Positions 56,513 to 64,000 of a stretch of 64,000 nt of DNA are shown here, piece after piece (the stretch's first letter is position 1; each line of letters starts with the position of its first letter). The position numbers were made by a program, and so were the translations under genes. A model generated the notes under the pieces. It made no database searches, had not been told where the DNA came from, and saw nothing but the letters and a program-made list of their open reading frames with translations. Source of the DNA: a virus; IMG/VR virus record IMGVR_UViG_3300042542_003555, positions 96,984-160,983 of that record; one strand, given 5' to 3'.

Positions 56513-57298
56513 ATGGATCCATTTACACTATTTGCTTTAGCTAATGGTGCAGTACAAGCGGTTAAAAAAGGCTGTGAACTATATAAGGAAATAGCAAGCG
56601 CCACCAATGATGTTAAAGGCGTCCTGAACGATCTTGAGGAACAATTTAATTCTCGTCATAAAGATAAGCCTCCTACTGTTGCTGAGAAAAATCAGTATAT
56701 AACAGAAAAAAACCGCATAATTGAATTAAGCAAACAACAGCCTAATGATGTCTATACGCAGATAGGGGAAGAACTTGGCGTATATTTTGAAAATTATGCA
56801 AAGTGTTCTGCCATCTTTGAGGAAGAAGCAAGACATGACCATGAAGTTTACACAGGAGAAACTAGTCTAGGTAAAAGAGCTTTACAACGGGTTCTTATGG
56901 AAAGCAGATTAAGTGCCATGGAAGCAGAACTTCGTGAGCTTATGGTTTACAACTGTCCTTCGGAATTAGGTGATTTATACACCCGTGTCTATGGTATGAT
57001 GGAGAGGATGAAAAAACAACAGGCTGTAGCATGGACTAAGAAAAGAGAACAAGACAGAAAAGCAGCTAATGTAAAAAGACGTAGGATAGAAAAAATAAGA
57101 TGTGAGGCTTGGAAATATGGGTTGAGTGTTTTTATTATAATCTATTTAACCTGGCTAATATGGGCAGTGGTACAAATAAGAATAGAAGTCTATCCTGAAC
57201 TTGGTCGTTGTTTGATACCAAAAGGTAGTGTAGTATATAATTGGTACAATAACTTAAAATGGATAGATTGTGAGTTTAAACCTAAAGAGGAAAATTAA
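56513..57298 (+). CDS. Helical protein with C-terminal TM segment
   Basis: MDPFTLFALA N-terminus; GGAG RBS; one TM. Confidence 0.7.
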   Translation: MDPFTLFALANGAVQAVKKGCELYKEIASATNDVKGVLNDLEEQFNSRHKDKPPTVAEKNQYITEKNRIIELSKQQPNDVYTQIGEELGVYFENYAKCSAIFEEEARHDHEVYTGETSLGKRALQRVLMESRLSAMEAELRELMVYNCPSELGDLYTRVYGMMERMKKQQAVAWTKKREQDRKAANVKRRRIEKIRCEAWKYGLSVFIIIYLTWLIWAVVQIRIEVYPELGRCLIPKGSVVYNWYNNLKWIDCEFKPKEEN

Positions 57299-57589
57299 AT
57301 GAAGAAGATTTTACTTATCGCTCTAATGCTCGTTTCTAGTTTTACATATTCAGAAGAAAGACAAAAGCCAGTTGCTTGTTATCAACTATCTGAGATGTTG
57401 AATAACCTGAAAACAAATCATGGAGAAAAACTTGATTTTGTTGTTACGAATCAAATGTACAGAAGTTTTATTACCAATATTGCTATGTACAGAAATGAAC
57501 AAACTGGTTCATGGACAATGATAGAGTATGGAGAAAATTTTCAAGGTGAAGGTTGTATTATAGGATCAGGAAAAGACACTACATCATAA
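57299..57589 (+). CDS. Secreted small protein
   Basis: Signal peptide, 2 Cys, GAGG RBS. Confidence 0.65.
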   Translation: MKKILLIALMLVSSFTYSEERQKPVACYQLSEMLNNLKTNHGEKLDFVVTNQMYRSFITNIAMYRNEQTGSWTMIEYGENFQGEGCIIGSGKDTTS

Positions 57590-57590
57590 T

Positions 57591-57664
57591 TGGTTGCGGG
57601 CCCAAGATTCGAACAAGGAACTGAGGATTATGAGTCCTCTGTGATACCGTTTCACCAACCCGCC
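57591..57664 (-). tRNA. tRNA-Met(CAT), initiator-like (G1-A72 mismatch)
   Basis: GAGGA-CT-CAT-AA-TCCTC; encoded CCA. Confidence 0.8.
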
Positions 57665-57674
57665 ATATATTTAG

Positions 57675-57757
57675 TGGTGCGAGTAGACGGATTTGAACCG
57701 TCACGCCGAAGCGGGAGATTTTAAGTCTCCTGTGTATACCAATTTCACCATACTCGC
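57675..57757 (-). tRNA. tRNA-Leu(TAA)
   Basis: GGAGA-CT-TAA-AA-TCTCC; long variable arm; CCA. Confidence 0.9.
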
Positions 57758-57764
57758 ATTATTT

Positions 57765-57841
57765 TGGTGCCCCAGAGGAGAGTCGAACTCCTAAAATTTG
57801 GCTTCTAAGACCAACACGTATACCAGTTCCGTCACCGGGGC
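57765..57841 (-). tRNA. tRNA-Leu(TAG), short variable loop
   Basis: TTGGT-CT-TAG-AA-GCCAA; CCA. Confidence 0.85.
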
Positions 57842-58005
57842 ATAAATACTTTTATGAACTACGACTACTACGAACGAACTTTTGGCCGTCATGCCTCTTA
57901 TACTAGTGATACAAAAGGAAAAAATTTCATTCCTATGTATAACGAAATACCTAAAGAACACTATGAGTTTGTGCCAATGAGATGGCCAACTTATGGTGAA
58001 ACTTT

Positions 58006-58081
58006 TGGTGCACCCTCTAAGAATCGAACTTAGTTCATCGGTTCTTCAAACCGCTGCTATGACCACATCAGCTAAAGGTGC
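58006..58081 (-). tRNA. tRNA-Phe(GAA)
   Basis: CGGT-TT-GAA-GA-ACCG; CCA. Confidence 0.85.
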
Positions 58082-58082
58082 T

Positions 58083-58157
58083 TGGTGCATCGTGATGGAT
58101 TCGAACCAACGACAACCTGCTTGTAAGGCAGGGACTCTACCACTGAGCTAACGATGC
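58083..58157 (-). tRNA. tRNA-Val(TAC)
   Basis: CCTGC-CT-TAC-AA-GCAGG; CCA. Confidence 0.9.
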
Positions 58158-58158
58158 T

Positions 58159-58404
58159 TTAATCAAATATTCCAATAATTTCATCGACATTTATTTGATA
58201 CAAATTATCCATTAATTTAGTTGCTTTATTCCAATTAATTAAAAGAATATTGTTAACTTCAACATCAGTAACTTCTGGTCCAATTGCAATAACTCTTGCT
58301 TTATCTGCCTCATCATTACTTTTAAGAATAATACCAGATGATGTGGTCAATTCTTTTTCAAGTTTTTCTACTATAACATTATTTCTAAGAGGTGTCAAGT
58401 TCAT
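58159..58404 (-). CDS. groES: Co-chaperonin GroES
   Basis: LTPLRNNVIV, TTSSGIIL, VIAIGP. Confidence 0.85.
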   Translation of the reverse strand: MNLTPLRNNVIVEKLEKELTTSSGIILKSNDEADKARVIAIGPEVTDVEVNNILLINWNKATKLMDNLYQINVDEIIGIFD

Positions 58405-58422
58405 TTTAATATTCCTTTTAAT

Positions 58423-58893
58423 TTAAGCCGCCAATACTTCTTTCAATCTATCTGCTGCATAAGAAGCCGCAAATGCTCTTGGCTTTACCATAGGTATCAC
58501 ATTACATGTACCACGAATATAACCAACTGCTTGTTGAATGACACAAGATGATCCATGCATTTCATTAGGATTAATATCTAAGTGTACTTCAACATAACGA
58601 TTTTCTAATACATCAGCAAGACTTTGAAACAGTTCTGATACTTTATATACTTCATTCATCAAACGCATAGAAGGACGATCCTTACGTTGATCATAATCTC
58701 TTTCTCTTGTTACTTCACCAAAAATTTTACAACCATGGCGACCATCTATATGTACAACAATTGCTGTTGTGTAATCTGCATACCAAACACCATTCATATT
58801 AAATCTTTCGGAGTCTGCACCTAGATAGATTTTTGTTTCTGGTGACTGAGCAAGAATATACTCTTTTACTTCCTCTAGATTTAATTTTTTCAT
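58423..58893 (-). CDS. RNase H-like YkuK/DUF458 family protein
   Basis: IYLGADS, RLMNEV, EVHLDIN, KPRAFAASYAAD. Confidence 0.8.
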   Translation of the reverse strand: MKKLNLEEVKEYILAQSPETKIYLGADSERFNMNGVWYADYTTAIVVHIDGRHGCKIFGEVTRERDYDQRKDRPSMRLMNEVYKVSELFQSLADVLENRYVEVHLDINPNEMHGSSCVIQQAVGYIRGTCNVIPMVKPRAFAASYAADRLKEVLAA

Positions 58894-58911
58894 TTTGTTC
58901 CTCTATGTTGT

Positions 58912-58985
58912 TGGCTCCGGTGGAGGGAATCGAACCCCCACTAACGGTTTTGGAGACCGCCGCACTGCCATTATACTACACCGGA
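58912..58985 (-). tRNA. tRNA-Trp(CCA)
   Basis: GCGGT-CT-CCA-AA-ACCGT; CCA. Confidence 0.9.
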
Positions 58986-58986
58986 A

Positions 58987-59253
58987 TCATTTTTTATCTA
59001 ATGTATTAATTTCATTAGTAATGTAATCACCAGATTTATCACTAATTCTATTCATTTCTTTTAGTGCATCTAACACACAATCTTCTGTACTTAGGATATC
59101 TTGAAAATCTGAAGAACTTTTTTTAATGTTGCACTTACATTTTTCACATTTACATTCTTTTTCTTTTTTAAAGATTTTGTCCCAGTTGTCATTATATGTT
59201 TTTTGATCCACACTGAATGGTCTGGGATTACTTCCTTTGCCACCATCAGACAT
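58987..59253 (-). CDS. Hypothetical protein (GGKGSxPRP...YxDNWDKIF motif)
   Basis: AGGAG RBS; motif common in small phage proteins. Confidence 0.65.
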   Translation of the reverse strand: MSDGGKGSNPRPFSVDQKTYNDNWDKIFKKEKECKCEKCKCNIKKSSSDFQDILSTEDCVLDALKEMNRISDKSGDYITNEINTLDKK

Positions 59254-59273
59254 ATTTAACTCCTATTAAAAAT

Positions 59274-59347
59274 TGGTCCTCTCTGATGGTAACGATCCAA
59301 CGTCTACCGCTTATCAAGCGGGTGCTCTACCTTTGAGCTAAGAGAGG
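59274..59347 (-). tRNA. tRNA-Ile(GAT)
   Basis: CCGC-TT-GAT-AA-GCGG; atypical T-loop; CCA. Confidence 0.85.
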
Positions 59348-59349
59348 AA

Positions 59350-59425
59350 TGGCCGGTCCTGAAGGAATCGAACCTCCACCTGTAGGTCCGTAGCCTACCG
59401 TAATCATCCATTTTACTAAGGACCG
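59350..59425 (-). tRNA. tRNA-Arg(ACG)
   Basis: GTAGG-CT-ACG-GA-CCTAC; CCA. Confidence 0.9.
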
Positions 59426-59430
59426 ATAAT

Positions 59431-59589
59431 AAATTTATAGCCGGTGTGTACACATTGAGGCATCACCCTCTCCCGACACTCCGTTCACTAAGCACAGCCG
59501 TTCACTAATTCCTGATTGATGGTCAGTTTTCGTTAATACTAAGCCATGTAGTCATCCTTCCCACTGGACTCTGCTCCTGCTATAAATTT
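59431..59589 (-). ncRNA. Stem-enclosed structured RNA of unknown family
   Basis: 11-bp terminal inverted repeat AAATTTATAGC/GCTATAAATTT between two tRNAs; no ORF of 60 aa or more. Confidence 0.6.
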
Positions 59590-59664
59590 TGGTGGTAATG
59601 GAGAGATTCGAACTCCCAACACACACCGTATGAAGGTGCTGCACTACCATTGTGCTACATTACC
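59590..59664 (-). tRNA. tRNA-Met(CAT), elongator (Ile2 not excluded)
   Basis: GCACC-TT-CAT-AC-GGTGT; CCA. Confidence 0.85.
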
Positions 59665-59668
59665 TAAT

Positions 59669-59745
59669 TGGTCTGAGTAGAGAGGATCGAACTCCCGACC
59701 TCCTGCTCCCAAAGCAGGCGCACTACCAGGCTGTGCTATACTCAG
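59669..59745 (-). tRNA. tRNA-Pro(TGG)
   Basis: CCTGC-TT-TGG-GA-GCAGG; CCA. Confidence 0.9.
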
Positions 59746-59752
59746 ATAAAAC

Positions 59753-59826
59753 TGGAGCGGGATATCAGAATCGAACTGATAACAGGAGCTTGGAAGGCTC
59801 ACGTTTTACCATTAAACTAATCCCGC
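59753..59826 (-). tRNA. tRNA-Gly(TCC)
   Basis: GAGC-CT-TCC-AA-GCTC; U73; CCA. Confidence 0.9.
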
Positions 59827-59829
59827 ATT

Positions 59830-59903
59830 TGGTGCCGCTTGATGGAATCGAACCAACGATTGATGCTTACAAGGCAACTGTTATGCCATTTAACTAAAGC
59901 GGC
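59830..59903 (-). tRNA. tRNA-Thr(TGT)
   Basis: TGC-CT-TGT-AA-GCA; CCA. Confidence 0.85.
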
Positions 59904-60643
59904 TATAATGCTTCAATAATTTTTTTACCTACTCGTTGTACATCTCTGGTATTTCTTTCACCTAAGATGACTATTGTATATTTCTCGCCATTTTTTGTCA
60001 AGAGCATTGCCAGACATTTGCCGGCAGCATTAGTGAAGCCAGTTTTTGATATCTCAATTTCTTTATATTCTTTTAATAAGTTATAATTTGTATTTTGAAC
60101 TACCAAATTACGTTTTACTTTTCTTCTTGTATATTGTGTTACATGCATTTGTTCTATTGCTGCAAGATTTTTCATTGTGTCAAAATTATATGCATAATTT
60201 AATAATATTGATAAATCTCTTGCGTTGCTTATATTATTTCTTCCTATACCAGAAGGATCTTCATATTGCGTATGAATCATTCCTAACTGTTCTGCTTTGT
60301 GATTCATGTTAGCAATAAAACTACTTCTGCCGCCTGAGTGTGCTTTTGCTAAAGCTTCGGCGGCTTGATTATCACTTTTAACTAATAATAATTTTAACAA
60401 TTCTTCTCTACTTAACTCTTTTCTACCCAAAAAACCTCTGTAGGAAACTTTTTCGTTTAATGATGCACCACTTTCAATAACAACAATTGCAGTCATTAGT
60501 TTTGTAACACTTGCAATTGGTCTTACTCTTTCAGATGCATATTCATGTACTACTTCATCTTTTGTTACATTATAAACATAAGTTGTTGCAGATGATACAT
60601 GTGCCGACAATAATAAAGATAAAATGAGAATTAATTTTTTCAT
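59903..60643 (-). CDS. D-alanyl-D-alanine carboxypeptidase/endopeptidase (peptidase S11, PBP5/PBP7-like)
   Basis: Signal peptide; SVTK (SxxK), SDN (SxN) and KTG motifs. Confidence 0.88.
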   Translation of the reverse strand: MKKLILILSLLLSAHVSSATTYVYNVTKDEVVHEYASERVRPIASVTKLMTAIVVIESGASLNEKVSYRGFLGRKELSREELLKLLLVKSDNQAAEALAKAHSGGRSSFIANMNHKAEQLGMIHTQYEDPSGIGRNNISNARDLSILLNYAYNFDTMKNLAAIEQMHVTQYTRRKVKRNLVVQNTNYNLLKEYKEIEISKTGFTNAAGKCLAMLLTKNGEKYTIVILGERNTRDVQRVGKKIIEAL

Positions 60644-60668
60644 CTTTGTTCCTGTGTGTGTAAAGGTT

Positions 60669-60676
60669 TATTTATG
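60669..60676 (-). promoter_or_regulatory. Late-promoter-like CATAAATA overlapping the tRNA-Ala CCA end
   Basis: One mismatch to TATAAATA, about 25 nt before the S11 peptidase ATG. Confidence 0.45.
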
Positions 60677-60748
60677 GTGGAGGATAACAGAATCGAACTG
60701 TTAATCTCGGCTTGCAAAGCCGATGTTATCCCATTTAACTAATCCCCC
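60675..60748 (-). tRNA. tRNA-Ala(TGC)
   Basis: TCGGC-TT-TGC-AA-GCCGA; G3-U70; CCA. Confidence 0.9.
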
Positions 60749-60766
60749 GACCGCCTCACACGCTAC

Positions 60767-60852
60767 TGGTGGGTGCTCTCCGATTCGAACAGAGAAGGCC
60801 TAGACAACGGATTTACAGTCCGCCCCCGATACCATTACGGGACTAAACACCC
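60767..60852 (-). tRNA. tRNA-Tyr(GTA)
   Basis: GCGGA-CT-GTA-AA-TCCGT; long variable arm; CCA. Confidence 0.9.
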
Positions 60853-60859
60853 TAAAACT

Positions 60860-60934
60860 TGGCTCCGGAGGTTGGGATCGAACCAACGACATATGGATTA
60901 ACAGTCCACCGTTCTACCACTGAACTACACCGGA
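60860..60934 (-). tRNA. tRNA-Asn(GTT)
   Basis: GTGGA-CT-GTT-AA-TCCAT; CCA. Confidence 0.9.
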
Positions 60935-60941
60935 ATAAATT

Positions 60942-61018
60942 TGGCGACACTTAGGGAATTCGAATCCCTGACCTCTGCCGTGACAGGGCAGCGTTCTAAC
61001 CAACTGAACTAAAGTGCC
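60942..61018 (-). tRNA. tRNA-Asp(GTC)
   Basis: CTGCC-CT-GTC-AC-GGCAG; CCA. Confidence 0.9.
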
Positions 61019-61023
61019 ATAAT

Positions 61024-61156
61024 AATATGGTGATTGGACGCCACGCCAACTTTCTGCTTACCACAAGGATGCCTTTCGGCTTCGCATTACTGGGTTGTTT
61101 CAGCGCACAGCCACTATACAGTGACCAAATCCCTTACCTTGCTTCTTCACCATATT
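61024..61156 (-). ncRNA. Stem-enclosed structured RNA of unknown family
   Basis: 10-bp terminal IR AATATGGTGA/TCACCATATT; internal GCC-GAAA-GGC hairpin. Confidence 0.55.
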
Positions 61157-61228
61157 GAAACACACTGGGACTCCATTGGAGTGAATTATCTTCGGAACAA
61201 CCCTTAGAACCAATGTGTTTCAATATGG
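61150..61228 (-). ncRNA. tRNA-Lys 3'-trailer stem cassette (three-way junction)
   Basis: 19-bp IR (one G-U on the minus strand) starting at the tRNA CCA; two internal hairpins. Confidence 0.6.
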
Positions 61229-61300
61229 TAGGTGCGGAGAATTTCGAAATCTCGACTTACCGGTTAAAAGCCGGTTACTCTGCCTCTGAGTTACGCACCC
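61226..61300 (-). tRNA. tRNA-Lys(TTT)
   Basis: ACCGG-CT-TTT-AA-CCGGT; CCA. Confidence 0.9.
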
Positions 61301-61329
61301 ATTATCTTATCACTCTTGTCACTATCCAT
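61291..61329 (-). CDS. 12-aa mini-ORF MDSDKSDKIMGA ending inside tRNA-Lys
   Basis: AAGGAG RBS 7 nt before ATG. Confidence 0.4.
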   Translation of the reverse strand: MDSDKSDKIMGA

Positions 61330-61355
61330 AACAGGACTCCTTTTTAAAAAATTAA

Positions 61356-61573
61356 TCTTGCTTAGGCTACTTGTTTTCCACGCAAGCCCCTATGCTGAGT
61401 TGTTACCCTGTCCACATTATGTTGAGCATTTGTCACGCATAATGAACGCTGCTATGTTGTTTGAAACACCGGAAACGCCGATTTCGCAGAGTTTATGTTT
61501 CGCTGACGGTGCCATAGCCACCGGGACTCTCTCGTTTACCACACGCTACTTTCAGGAAAGTAGTAACCGGAAC
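61356..61573 (-). ncRNA. About 220-nt multi-stem structured RNA (possibly manA-motif-like)
   Basis: Hairpins CTACTTT/AAAGTAG, CGGTG/CACCG, CATTATG/CATAATG, TAGG..CTTG/CAAG..CCTA. Confidence 0.55.
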
Positions 61574-61625
61574 TTATATGGTATAATCTACCAAGCATAT
61601 TGTGCTTGTATCACAGTTAGTTATA

Positions 61626-61774
61626 CCATATTAAAGTATTATCTGCTCAATTTAGGAAATTGGTGCGCTTGCCATCCATAGCCGAGAGCGGTTATATTAG
61701 GATCAGTCGCCGGCTGCTTTGACCCGAATAGTGTATGCGTCCATACACGATACCCTGATAATACTTTAATATGG
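61626..61774 (-). ncRNA. tRNA-Glu 3'-trailer stem cassette with possible pseudoknot
   Basis: 18-bp perfect IR starting at the tRNA CCA; internal GTGTATG/CATACAC and GGGTCA/TGATCC stems; loop AGCCG complementary to downstream CGGCT. Confidence 0.6.
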
Positions 61775-61846
61775 CACACCCAACCGGATTCGAACCGGTG
61801 TTACTGCCGTGAAAGGGCAATGTCCTGACCACTAGACGATGGGTGC
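61772..61846 (-). tRNA. tRNA-Glu(TTC)
   Basis: TTGCC-CT-TTC-AC-GGCAG; CCA. Confidence 0.9.
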
Positions 61847-61890
61847 ATCGTATTGCTAAATTGTTAAAGAAACTCAACTACAGAAACATC

Positions 61891-61919
61891 ATTGTACACT
61901 GGCTCAATCGTTTTGTCAA
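61891..61919 (-). promoter_or_regulatory. Internal sigma70 promoter of the tRNA array
   Basis: TTGACA(61919-61914)-N17-TACAAT(61896-61891). Confidence 0.8.
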
Positions 61920-61958
61920 GCGTGTTGTACAAATACAACATGTTGCTACTTTTGCAAC

Positions 61959-62036
61959 TGGAGCAACGGGTCAGATTCGAACTGACGGTTTTAAGGTTTT
62001 GCAGACCTTTGCATTGGGCCACTCTGCCACCGTTGC
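61959..62036 (-). tRNA. tRNA-Cys(GCA)
   Basis: AAGGT-CT-GCA-AA-ACCTT; U73; CCA. Confidence 0.9.
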
Positions 62037-62042
62037 GTCAAC

Positions 62043-62132
62043 TGGTCCTTCGGTGTGGAGTCGAACCACATCCTGGGTCTTATCTGGACAAATGCTTATA
62101 AGGCATCCTGCTCTACCGTGAGCTACCGAAGG
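62043..62132 (-). tRNA. tRNA-Ile(TAT) with an abnormally long variable region
   Basis: GATGC-CT-TAT-AA-GCATT; acceptor CCTTCGG/CCGAAGG, A73, CCA; about 20-nt variable region. Confidence 0.75.
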
Positions 62133-62191
62133 TCATTCTTAAATATAAAATAAAGAAGCAAAAAAATGATAACTACAACTATCGCAGCCAT
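62123..62191 (-). CDS. 22-aa hydrophobic mini-ORF MAAIVVVIIFLLLYFIFKNDLR ending inside tRNA-Ile(TAT)
   Basis: AGGAAAGGAG RBS; TM-like peptide. An alternative ATG 4 nt upstream gives an 18-aa ORF in another frame. Confidence 0.4.
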   Translation of the reverse strand: MAAIVVVIIFLLLYFIFKNDLR

Positions 62192-62223
62192 TCATAATTA
62201 CTCCTTTCCTTTTGTTCGTTAAT

Positions 62224-62316
62224 TGGCGGAGATAGTTGGATTCGAACCAACGGATCATTTTTAAGATGATCGACGGTTTAGCAAACCGCTGCCTTAAGCC
62301 TCTCAGCCATATCTCC
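62224..62316 (-). tRNA. tRNA-Ser(GCT)
   Basis: GCGGT-TT-GCT-AA-ACCGT; long variable arm; G73; CCA. Confidence 0.9.
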
Positions 62317-62421
62317 TACTATTACTGCAAACTTATAAAACGAAAACATCACAGTAGCCATAAAAAAGCCCATTGCTATCCAATAACCTAATATTGTTAA
62401 TACAATTATTGCTATAGACAT
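62278..62421 (-). CDS. 47-aa membrane peptide ending inside tRNA-Ser(GCT)
   Basis: AGGAGA RBS; MSIAIIVLTILGYWIAMGFF... Confidence 0.45.
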   Translation of the reverse strand: MSIAIIVLTILGYWIAMGFFMATVMFSFYKFAVIVGDMAERLKAAVC

Positions 62422-62435
62422 TTGTTCTCCTATAT

Positions 62436-62520
62436 CCATAGTAAAACACATTCTTGGATTCTCGTAACAGTAATCCATGACCCCGGGCGTCATTATGTGT
62501 TTGAATGTGTTTTACTATGG
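62436..62520 (-). ncRNA. tRNA-Ser(TGA) 3'-trailer stem cassette (three-way junction)
   Basis: 18-bp perfect IR starting at the tRNA CCA; internal ATGAC/GTCAT and GGATT/AATCC hairpins. Confidence 0.6.
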
Positions 62521-62605
62521 CGGAAGCGGTGAGATTCGAACTCACGGACCTTTTACAGTCGGCAGTTTTCAAGACTGCTGATTTAAACCACTCATCCACA
62601 CTTCC
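62518..62605 (-). tRNA. tRNA-Ser(TGA)
   Basis: GCAGT-CT-TGA-AA-ACTGC; long variable arm; CCA. Confidence 0.9.
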
Positions 62606-62614
62606 ATAAATCTT

Positions 62615-62689
62615 TGGGGTGTCTAACGAGTACCGACCTCGTACCTACTCTTTCACAGAGAGTAATGCTACCACTACACCATAGACACC
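62615..62689 (-). tRNA. tRNA-His(GTG)
   Basis: ACTCT-CT-GTG-AA-AGAGT; G-1:C73; atypical T-loop; CCA. Confidence 0.88.
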
Positions 62690-62691
62690 AC

Positions 62692-62765
62692 TGGCAGGGA
62701 CATTAGGATTCGAACCTAAACTAACAGAGTCAAAGTCTGCGGTGCTGCCGTTACACTATGTCCCA
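62692..62765 (-). tRNA. tRNA-Gln(TTG)
   Basis: GCAGA-CT-TTG-AC-TCTGT; CCA; first tRNA after the attenuator. Confidence 0.9.
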
Positions 62766-62769
62766 ATAT

Positions 62770-62803
62770 AAACAAAAAACCCCTAGTTTTTACGCTAGGG
62801 GTC
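62770..62803 (-). terminator. Intrinsic terminator of the putative attenuator
   Basis: GACCCCTAG-CGTAAAAA-CTAGGGGTT-TTTTGTTT. Confidence 0.85.
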
Positions 62804-62843
62804 TTGTGTTTAGATTAAGATTTCTAGTCTATACACGGACCCC
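62798..62843 (-). promoter_or_regulatory. Antiterminator hairpin of the putative attenuator
   Basis: GGGGTC-C-GTGT-A-TAGA (end of leader ORF) pairs with TCTA-A-ACAC-AA-GACCCC, sequestering the terminator 5' arm. Confidence 0.75.
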
Positions 62844-62924
62844 AAAGGCGAACCATGACGCATCACCACAATTAATTGTGTGATACTCTGGCTGACTTAT
62901 AATGGGTTTGCGTATGGACAACAT
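62829..62924 (-). CDS. Attenuator leader peptide containing all 20 amino acids (MLSIRKPIISQPEYHTINCGDASWFAFGVRV)
   Basis: Lies between promoter and terminator; AGAAAG SD-like element. The 63-aa version in the ORF track starts upstream of the promoter and is unlikely. Confidence 0.75.
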   Translation of the reverse strand: MLSIRKPIISQPEYHTINCGDASWFAFGVRV

Positions 62925-62957
62925 TGTAATCTTTCTAACTAAATTTAATATGTTAAC

Positions 62958-62986
62958 AGTATATAGTAAACTTTTTGGTTTGTCAA
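62958..62986 (-). promoter_or_regulatory. Sigma70 promoter of the tRNA operon leader
   Basis: AACCC-TTGACA(62986-62981)-N17-TATACT(62963-62958), same consensus as the early promoters. Confidence 0.85.
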
Positions 62987-63004
62987 GGGTTATTTTGATG
63001 TTTT

Positions 63005-63514
63005 TTATGAAACTTTCCATTTTATTGGAATTGAAACTATTGGATCATCAGGATTCTTAAATTCATCAAAGATATTCCAAAGATGATGCATCACTACAAA
63101 TTTATATAATAATCCTGGTTCTCTACCGTATGCATCAATCTCCCAAGGATGATCCCAATAGTCTACCTTACTTTGATCTATCTTTTTATTTTTCCATCTA
63201 GATAATACATCGTCGGTTTCGTTCATGATATATTGTTTAACATGTACCATCTCATGTGCAAGTGTTTCCAATATTAATCTTGCCCCAATTCCCGAATGTA
63301 TCTCTATTAGAAATTCTCTAGGTTGTTTTCCTTTGTTATATCCAGAAATACTGGCATAACCATATTCTTTGATTTTCTTTGTAAAGACAATTTTAGTCTT
63401 ACAGTTATTGCTAATTCTTTTATTTGGGATTAATTCTTGGGCAAAAAAGGAGGCTGCCTCAGACACAAAAGGCTTAAAGTCTTTATCTGGACAATTGACA
63501 ATCTTGAACTGCAT
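63005..63514 (-). CDS. Zincin-like metallopeptidase domain protein
   Basis: TLAHEMVHVKQY...PWEIDAY. Confidence 0.75.
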   Translation of the reverse strand: MQFKIVNCPDKDFKPFVSEAASFFAQELIPNKRISNNCKTKIVFTKKIKEYGYASISGYNKGKQPREFLIEIHSGIGARLILETLAHEMVHVKQYIMNETDDVLSRWKNKKIDQSKVDYWDHPWEIDAYGREPGLLYKFVVMHHLWNIFDEFKNPDDPIVSIPIKWKVS

Positions 63515-63543
63515 CGGTGTTCCTTTGTGTACCTATGCATCAT

Positions 63544-63551
63544 TATTTATA
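63544..63551 (-). promoter_or_regulatory. T4-type late promoter TATAAATA
   Basis: Exact match 30 nt upstream of the 63514 ATG. Confidence 0.6.
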
Positions 63552-63552
63552 T

Positions 63553-63972
63553 TTAACCTCTCTCCGACCCATCTGACGGCTCTGAAGTCTTGAAAATCAT
63601 CACTCCACATTCAGTTAAGAACTTCAATCCATCGCTGGAACGATAATCTTTCTCATAGTATACTGTTTTGATACCAGCGGTAAATATCTGTTTGGCACAG
63701 TCAATACAAGGAGCATGAGTTAAAAACATAGTAGCATCTTTGCCAGATTCTGTGCTTTTGGCCAACTTTGCAATAGCATTGGCTTCCGCATGGATTACTT
63801 CTGGTTTTGTTTTTAGTCCACCATCTTCATTTGTATCTTCACAGATATTACTCCAACCAGATGGCATTCCATTATAACCAATAGAAACAATTCTATCTTC
63901 TTTAACTATAATAGCACCAACTTGTAAACGAACTGCTGATGATAATTCAGCAAATCGTTTTGCTACATCCAT
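63553..63972 (-). CDS. cd: dCMP deaminase (frame stays open to the window edge, so the start may be further upstream)
   Basis: VGAII, GYNG, HAEANAI, PCIDC. Confidence 0.9.
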   Translation of the reverse strand: MDVAKRFAELSSAVRLQVGAIIVKEDRIVSIGYNGMPSGWSNICEDTNEDGGLKTKPEVIHAEANAIAKLAKSTESGKDATMFLTHAPCIDCAKQIFTAGIKTVYYEKDYRSSDGLKFLTECGVMIFKTSEPSDGSERG

Positions 63973-64000
63973 GTATGCTCTAATATATTTAAAGAAGATA

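Follow-up and report, generated by a model that had tools for sequence, protein, structure and literature searches.

A Candidate Ribosome-Mediated Attenuator with a Leader Peptide of Exceptional Amino-Acid Variety Ahead of tRNA Arrays in T4-Like Phages

Overview

The tRNA array of an uncultured, T4-like phage from a lake is probably headed by a ribosome-mediated leader-peptide attenuator that gives feedback on phage tRNA supply (rough probability, 0.6). The narrower statement that a conserved leader-peptide attenuator stands ahead of phage tRNA arrays is well supported: the short ORF and the intrinsic terminator persist in relatives, as does an antiterminator that covaries, in the attenuator geometry that the original prediction had recognized in a single sequence. 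A further reading, in which the leader serves as a pan-amino-acid test gene that senses the whole charged-tRNA pool or the speed of translation, is plausible but more tentative. Why phages carry tRNA genes, and how these genes are controlled, is a long-standing open question.

The window, by which is meant the whole stretch of DNA that was analysed, consists of 64,000 nt at positions 96,984 to 160,983 of IMGVR_UViG_3300042542_003555 (full record, 160,983 bp); coordinates below without a contig name refer to it, and the features described there are on the minus strand. Searches with megablast, blastn and tblastn found no close relatives among GenBank phages, and the family carrying the leader unit, with more than 100 members, is known from metagenomes only. 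Relatives were gathered by using a neighbouring 169-aa gene as an anchor, by three pattern scans, and by a profile search of 1.8 billion proteins together with the contigs encoding the matches, giving a family set of 27 distinct leader peptides in 8 lineages.

Structure of the Leader Region

The leader promoter (62958-62986) is of the sigma-70 type, with TTGACA at 62986-62981, a 17-nt spacer and TATACT at 62963-62958; it agrees with the consensus at 11 of 12 positions and is the top match within the 8 kb scanned. Relatives have the same arrangement, with TTGACA or TTGCCA, N17 and TATAAT. The leader ORF (62829-62924; 31 codons) starts with ATG at 62924, 6 nt downstream of a weak Shine-Dalgarno-like GAAAG (62931-62935), and ends with TAG at 62831-62829. 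It contains all 20 amino acids, 19 of which have appeared by codon 25, and uses 29 different codons among its 31; no amino acid occurs more than four times, and a codon cluster for the amino acid or amino acids served by the operon is absent. Downstream is an intrinsic terminator (62770-62805; -14.9 kcal/mol) composed of an 11-bp stem (62805-62776) and a T-run (62779-62774, continuing to 62770). tRNA-Gln (62765-62692) begins 8 nt past the T-run and opens the first tRNA block (Gln, His, Ser-UGA, Ser-GCU, Ile-UAU and Cys; 61959-62765). The promoter, the all-20 ORF, its early coverage of 19 amino acids and the terminator are all where the original prediction placed them.

Three regions within the leader can form alternative pairings upstream of the terminator 3' arm. 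Region 1 (62904-62919) comprises codons 2-7; region 2 (62827-62843), the antiterminator 5' strand, comprises the last four codons, the stop codon and 2 nt; and region 3 (62798-62814), the antiterminator 3' strand, has 62803-62798 in common with the terminator 5' arm. In a fold that leaves the terminator 3' arm aside, 62843-62828 is predicted to pair with 62814-62798, exactly the antiterminator originally written out. The full-length fold of the leader (z=-6.2) includes a third pairing that had escaped the original prediction, formed between codons 2-7 (62919-62904) and the ORF 3' end and enclosing a stable central hairpin (codons 11-25; 62851-62893). With this region 1:2 pairing added, the layout becomes the full 1:2, 2:3, 3:4 scheme. 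The central hairpin is present in every lineage and is possibly a pause hairpin. In the same full-length fold, 62927-62932, just 5' of the start codon, pairs with 62812-62817 in the spacer between regions 2 and 3, so that terminated transcripts may hide their own ribosome binding site.

The 169-aa gene used as an anchor lies upstream (63005-63514, minus strand). Its product has an HExxH motif and matches phrog_10499, which has no assigned function, at 1e-24; its Pfam matches (SprT-like, M91) are sub-threshold only, and one homologue, from a cyanophage, bears the annotation of a WLM protease domain protein.

Conservation of the Alternative Pairings

Across the family, the region 2:3 helix is preserved in at least 10 versions that differ in sequence. 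Duplex-energy tests, in which cognate strands were compared with non-cognate strands and with shuffles, were used in place of column-based covariation. Cognate region 2:3 pairs have a mean energy of -18.3 kcal/mol, compared with -13.3 kcal/mol for non-cognate pairs, and none of 20,000 permutations was as good (P<5e-5). Shuffles of the sequence beyond the GGGG core give P=0.004-0.1 per version and a Fisher combined value of 2e-8, to be read with the versions being not all independent. In one lineage, both strands of the antiterminator helix carry matched insertions relative to the neighbouring lineage, the stop codon is always within or just past this helix, and the terminator stems also covary among lineages. 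For the region 1:2 helix, the difference between cognate and non-cognate duplexes is weaker than for region 2:3 (P=0.005). With MAFFT and RNAalifold, column-wise covariation yielded the GGGG:CCCC core alone, since bulges and register vary from one lineage's helices to the next.

The conserved peptide motifs sit in these helices, with Lys-Pro opposite Gly-Val, Tyr-Arg opposite Gly-Asp and Pro opposite Trp. In the central hairpin, one arm varies between Arg and His (CGC/CAC), and a synonymous Gly change (GGC/GGT) on the opposite arm matches it. In the DEG lineages, the central segment is nearly invariant, loop bases and synonymous sites included, and the hairpin varies only at the third base of one Pro and one Gln codon (L041:3590-3625, and the same segment in L030, L082, L116-L118, L125, L132 and L168), which suggests a pause signal or a binding site. 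As the motifs coincide with helices and synonymous sites are invariant, much of the apparent peptide conservation is RNA conservation.

Ribosome Position and Folding

The effect of a translating ribosome was modelled thermodynamically for 13 representatives by folding RNA that ended just before the terminator 3' arm, with a 30-nt mask placed at each codon. With the footprint at codons 1 to about 23, the antiterminator is the best fold in these representatives, and once the footprint reaches roughly the final 8 codons or the stop codon, the terminator 5' arm is free; the constrained folding thus behaves as had been anticipated. In RNA of the same extent carrying no ribosome, the antiterminator is preferred in 10 of the 13.

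Under equilibrium folding of the entire RNA, no mask displaces the terminator in the window's lineage, which indicates that the switch has to be kinetic and decided during transcription. Full-length equilibrium folding with ribosome masks was dropped as the relevant model, the terminator always winning in lineages A, B and E. Termination of untranslated RNA would depend on the region 1:2 helix, the first to form. The reading best supported by the modelling is that termination would need a ribosome that finishes the leader in time, and that slow translation would result in read-through.

Translation of the Leader ORF

Several features point to translation of the ORF. All 27 variants share one open frame, whereas the other five frames each contain 1-5 stops. 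The position of the start codon is constant, and GGAG, AAGGAG or AGGAA is found 5' of the start in most relatives. The spacings between conserved anchors differ between lineages by multiples of 3 only, and leader dN/dS is 0.17-0.86. In lineage C1, the Shine-Dalgarno sequence is absent and a -10-like box (TATACT or TATAAT) is found 3 nt before the ATG (L026:3516-3540, and at the same place in L086, L093, L111 and L119); judged from this sequence, the mRNA of lineage C1 may be leaderless or the ORF may be read from the transcript of the upstream gene. A 63-codon version of the ORF proposed by gene callers (start, 63020) is closed by stops in the L007 group and is not conserved.

The leader peptides of four family members had no match in Pfam or PHROGs at E<=1, and a search of 57000-64000 against Rfam at E<=1 gave tRNAs and chance matches only, with no T-box. 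Identity to the window's peptide drops to about 25%, and the peptide of L151 has little in common with the others beyond Trp and Gly-Val. The dN/dS values imply some amino-acid constraint, which weakens the original interpretation.

Amino-Acid Coverage of the Leader Peptides

The window has 932 ORFs of 25-40 codons, of which the leader alone contains 20 amino-acid types and 7 contain 19. No 31-residue segment of the phage's long ORFs reaches 20 types (0 of 13,703), and the expectation from independent draws is 4e-4. An all-20 ORF would be found about once per 64 kb by chance, and so the weight of the argument rests on the relatives.

In the family, the leader peptides are 30-43 residues long and hold 20 types in thirteen cases, 19 in ten, 18 in two, 17 in one and 15 in one. 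This breadth is specific to the frame: the other frames of the leader RNAs give 13-18 types (mean, 15.5), and stop-free nucleotide shuffles give a mean of 15.5-16 types, with P(20) of 0.0003 to 0.004. Cys is found in 25 of the 27 peptides (expected fraction, 0.32), across 13 alignment columns, and His in 26 of the 27 (expected fraction, 0.57). Such rare residues shift position between lineages yet remain present, and gaps in coverage fall on common residues (Lys, Arg, Ala and Val).

Shared ancestry affects how these counts are to be read. A conditional test that takes ancestry into account, in which columns common to at least 4 lineages were fixed, one P value was taken per lineage and the discovery lineage was excluded, gives a combined P=4e-4. 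In a strict descent test, which treats every residue found in another lineage as inherited, significance is lost for most lineages, and the coverage of the window's own peptide is unremarkable. Near-complete coverage in relatives, as originally expected, holds in a frame-specific manner for the 23 of 27 peptides with 19-20 types, but not for the four with 15-18 types. In addition, given 29 distinct codons among 31, the chance of all 20 types is about 1-2% by our own calculation. Taken across the peptide sequences, selection for amino-acid coverage appears likely. Val is found only in region 2, at codons 29 and 31, and could not be sensed.

The tRNA Array and Its Relation to Leader Codons

ARAGORN detects 23 tRNAs for 19 amino acids in the array. 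It misses a tRNA-Tyr (anticodon GTA; about 60852-60768, minus strand) that has a long variable arm and ends in CCA; Rfam gives only a sub-threshold tRNA-Sec match at this site. With tRNA-Tyr added, the downstream array covers all 20 amino acids, in agreement with the original prediction.

A strict mirror relationship, in which the residue missing from the leader would correspond to the tRNA missing from the array, was considered and is contradicted by lineage B, in which the leader lacks Lys and the array has tRNA-Lys, and in which the leader has Asn and Val and the array has no tRNAs for Asn or Val. The leaders encode Arg with CGN at 8 of 9 independent positions, whereas 54% of all Arg codons in the phage are AGA. 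The gene for tRNA-Arg(UCU) is upstream of the attenuator in the genome of the window and in five relatives; L125 has the sole AGA-bearing leader and is the sole phage with tRNA-Arg(UCU) in the downstream array. The CGN preference in leaders could also stem from helices that need G and C. In several lineages, tRNA-Arg(UCU) and tRNA-Met form a pair upstream of a dCMP deaminase gene and outside the attenuated unit (G000:C1:145-302, at the other end of the record; L120:5899-6055; L121:8293-8446).

Distribution of the Unit and Promoters Downstream of the Terminator

In all 8 lineages with the 27 distinct peptides, the terminator and a tRNA array are always 3' of the ORF, and the unit is present in a single copy per genome. 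It reaches relatives in which the neighbouring 169-aa protein is merely 50% identical, and in L115 the upstream genes are quite different and the unit is placed within an array. A further 26 more distant anchor-gene loci that lack tRNAs have no leader unit. The exceptions are L018-L020, which keep the terminator and promoter and lack the ORF, and L021 and L046, which run straight into tRNAs. The view that homologous loci keep the ORF therefore needs qualification for L018-L020. The leaders at L132:4606-4710 and L125:1577-1681 have N-terminal codons of the window-lineage type and a central segment of the DEG-lineage type, which looks, from the sequences, like recombination within the leader.

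In the window, no promoter-like site is found between the terminator and tRNA-Gln, and the next in the 8 kb scan is at 61919-61891. In the window's lineage and in L115, the tRNA genes follow 8-17 nt past the T-run with no intervening promoter. Most lineages have a strong promoter between the terminator and the first tRNA, which indicates that the attenuator is not the sole control there and that read-through would only add to tRNA transcription. The post-terminator promoter of relatives consists of TTGACA-N17-TAnAAT followed, just before the first tRNA, by the conserved motif TGTTCTTTAAAAATT or one near it (L116:1800-1875; likewise in L017, L018, L026, L030, L041, L082, L117-L119 and L151), which we take to resemble boxA of rrn operons, where NusB/S10 act in antitermination. 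In lineage B, the motif is retained but no post-terminator promoter is obvious, and no boxA-like motif above chance was found in the tRNA region of the window.

Proposed Mechanism and Alternative Explanations

In the proposed mechanism, host RNA polymerase would start at the early-type promoter and transcribe the 31-codon leader. Region 2 would pair with either region 1 or region 3, and the terminator would form only when region 3 is free. A ribosome at the last 8 or so codons or at the stop codon would cover region 2, and transcription would end 8 nt before tRNA-Gln; a ribosome held within codons 1 to about 23 would leave region 2 free, the antiterminator would form, and polymerase would enter the tRNA genes. 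If no ribosome is present, region 2 would also be free unless the first-transcribed region 1:2 pairing holds it. Because the leader contains nearly each amino acid once, a shortage of almost any charged tRNA would probably raise read-through, as would generally slow translation, resulting in feedback control of the phage's own tRNA supply.

A real attenuator might respond to a different signal, either a nascent-peptide stall on a ligand or a report on transcription-translation coupling in early infection, with the variety of amino acids then arising as a by-product of the complexity of the RNA switch; this is rather unlikely. In the ligand-stall version, the conserved Tyr-Arg/His-Thr, Asp, Trp and Gly-Val would stall the ribosome as in TnaC and SpeFL, and dN/dS below 1 together with a few invariant positions would fit such a peptide, but the conserved residues fall in RNA helices and the DEG central segment is synonymously invariant, which argues for a constraint on the RNA rather than on the peptide. 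The by-product idea draws on the diversity of codons (29 distinct of 31), which several specific helices would favour and which raises the probability of 20 types to the 1-2% given above, and on coverage that is not strict (15 to 20 types). However, other frames of the same RNA hold merely 13-18 types, and the rare residues move yet persist.

Somewhat less probable again is that the ORF is a conventional small early gene, with a promoter and terminator to itself and a peptide product that has a function of its own. The terminator would then end the leader and upstream transcripts and insulate the tRNA promoter, and the alternative pairing would act on mRNA stability or translation, not on termination. 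The promoter directly 3' of the terminator in most relatives is what such an arrangement would have, dN/dS is below 1, and gene callers list the ORF as a protein; but the window's lineage and L115 have no promoter between the T-run and the tRNA genes, the helix that competes with the terminator arm is maintained by covariation with the stop codon always in or just past it, no Pfam or PHROG family matches the peptide, and the unit is found only with tRNA arrays. A structured RNA without coding function, or a leader bound by protein, in either case with an incidental ORF, is highly improbable: the strong fold (z=-6.2) and the conserved hairpins and loop bases would suit it, whereas the frame is open in 27 of 27 variants and 8 lineages, start codons, mostly with a Shine-Dalgarno sequence, keep their position, indels add or remove whole codons, dN/dS stays under 1, and Rfam has no match.

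Significance and Comparison with Known Systems

If the pan-amino-acid proposal is true, the phage would raise its complete set of tRNAs when any tRNA runs short and lower it again once decoding is fast. The shortage could come from starvation, host shut-off or tRNA-cleaving defence nucleases, and two recent reports link phage tRNAs to evasion of host defences that cleave tRNA (PMC10264068, PMC11464382). The element would be the first known regulatory input to phage tRNA expression, and would widen the reach of leader-peptide attenuation, from single amino acids to the full set and from enzyme genes to tRNA genes. A full-text literature search found neither leader-peptide control of tRNA genes nor an all-amino-acid leader. 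Although phage and host are both uncultured, the entire element, at about 220 nt, is short enough to be tested directly in a defined transcription-translation system.

Attenuators of the trp type include trpL, hisL, leuL and pheL, the multivalent thrL and ilvL, and also pheST. The phage element has in common with them a short ORF close to the promoter, an intrinsic terminator ahead of the genes under control, the 1:2, 2:3 and 3:4 pairings, and a choice of pairing decided by ribosome position, which is here predicted by constrained folding. These four structural features are all present in the phage leader, with a Shine-Dalgarno sequence that is weak in the window, and the codon run characteristic of the type is missing: instead of repeating the codons of one or a few amino acids, the phage leader uses nearly every amino acid once or twice. 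The phage element further differs in being viral, in regulating tRNAs rather than biosynthetic enzymes or synthetases, and in having a second promoter 3' of the terminator in most relatives. In addition, the phage ORF runs through region 2, whereas trp-type ORFs stop between regions 1 and 2.

Other systems resemble the phage leader in part. The pyrBI leader of E. coli likewise has no regulatory codon run, and its outcome is set by the closeness of the ribosome to polymerase; there, however, the ribosome melts the terminator and the signal is UTP-dependent pausing, whereas a closely following ribosome on the phage leader would favour termination. The T-box (Rfam RF00230) also links tRNA charging to terminator read-through via an antiterminator, but it is untranslated and binds one uncharged tRNA directly. 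TnaC and SpeFL, like the phage leader, are short conserved leader peptides that control downstream transcription termination, but they use Rho and a ligand in the exit tunnel, whereas the phage terminator is intrinsic and the conserved residues of its leader lie in RNA helices.
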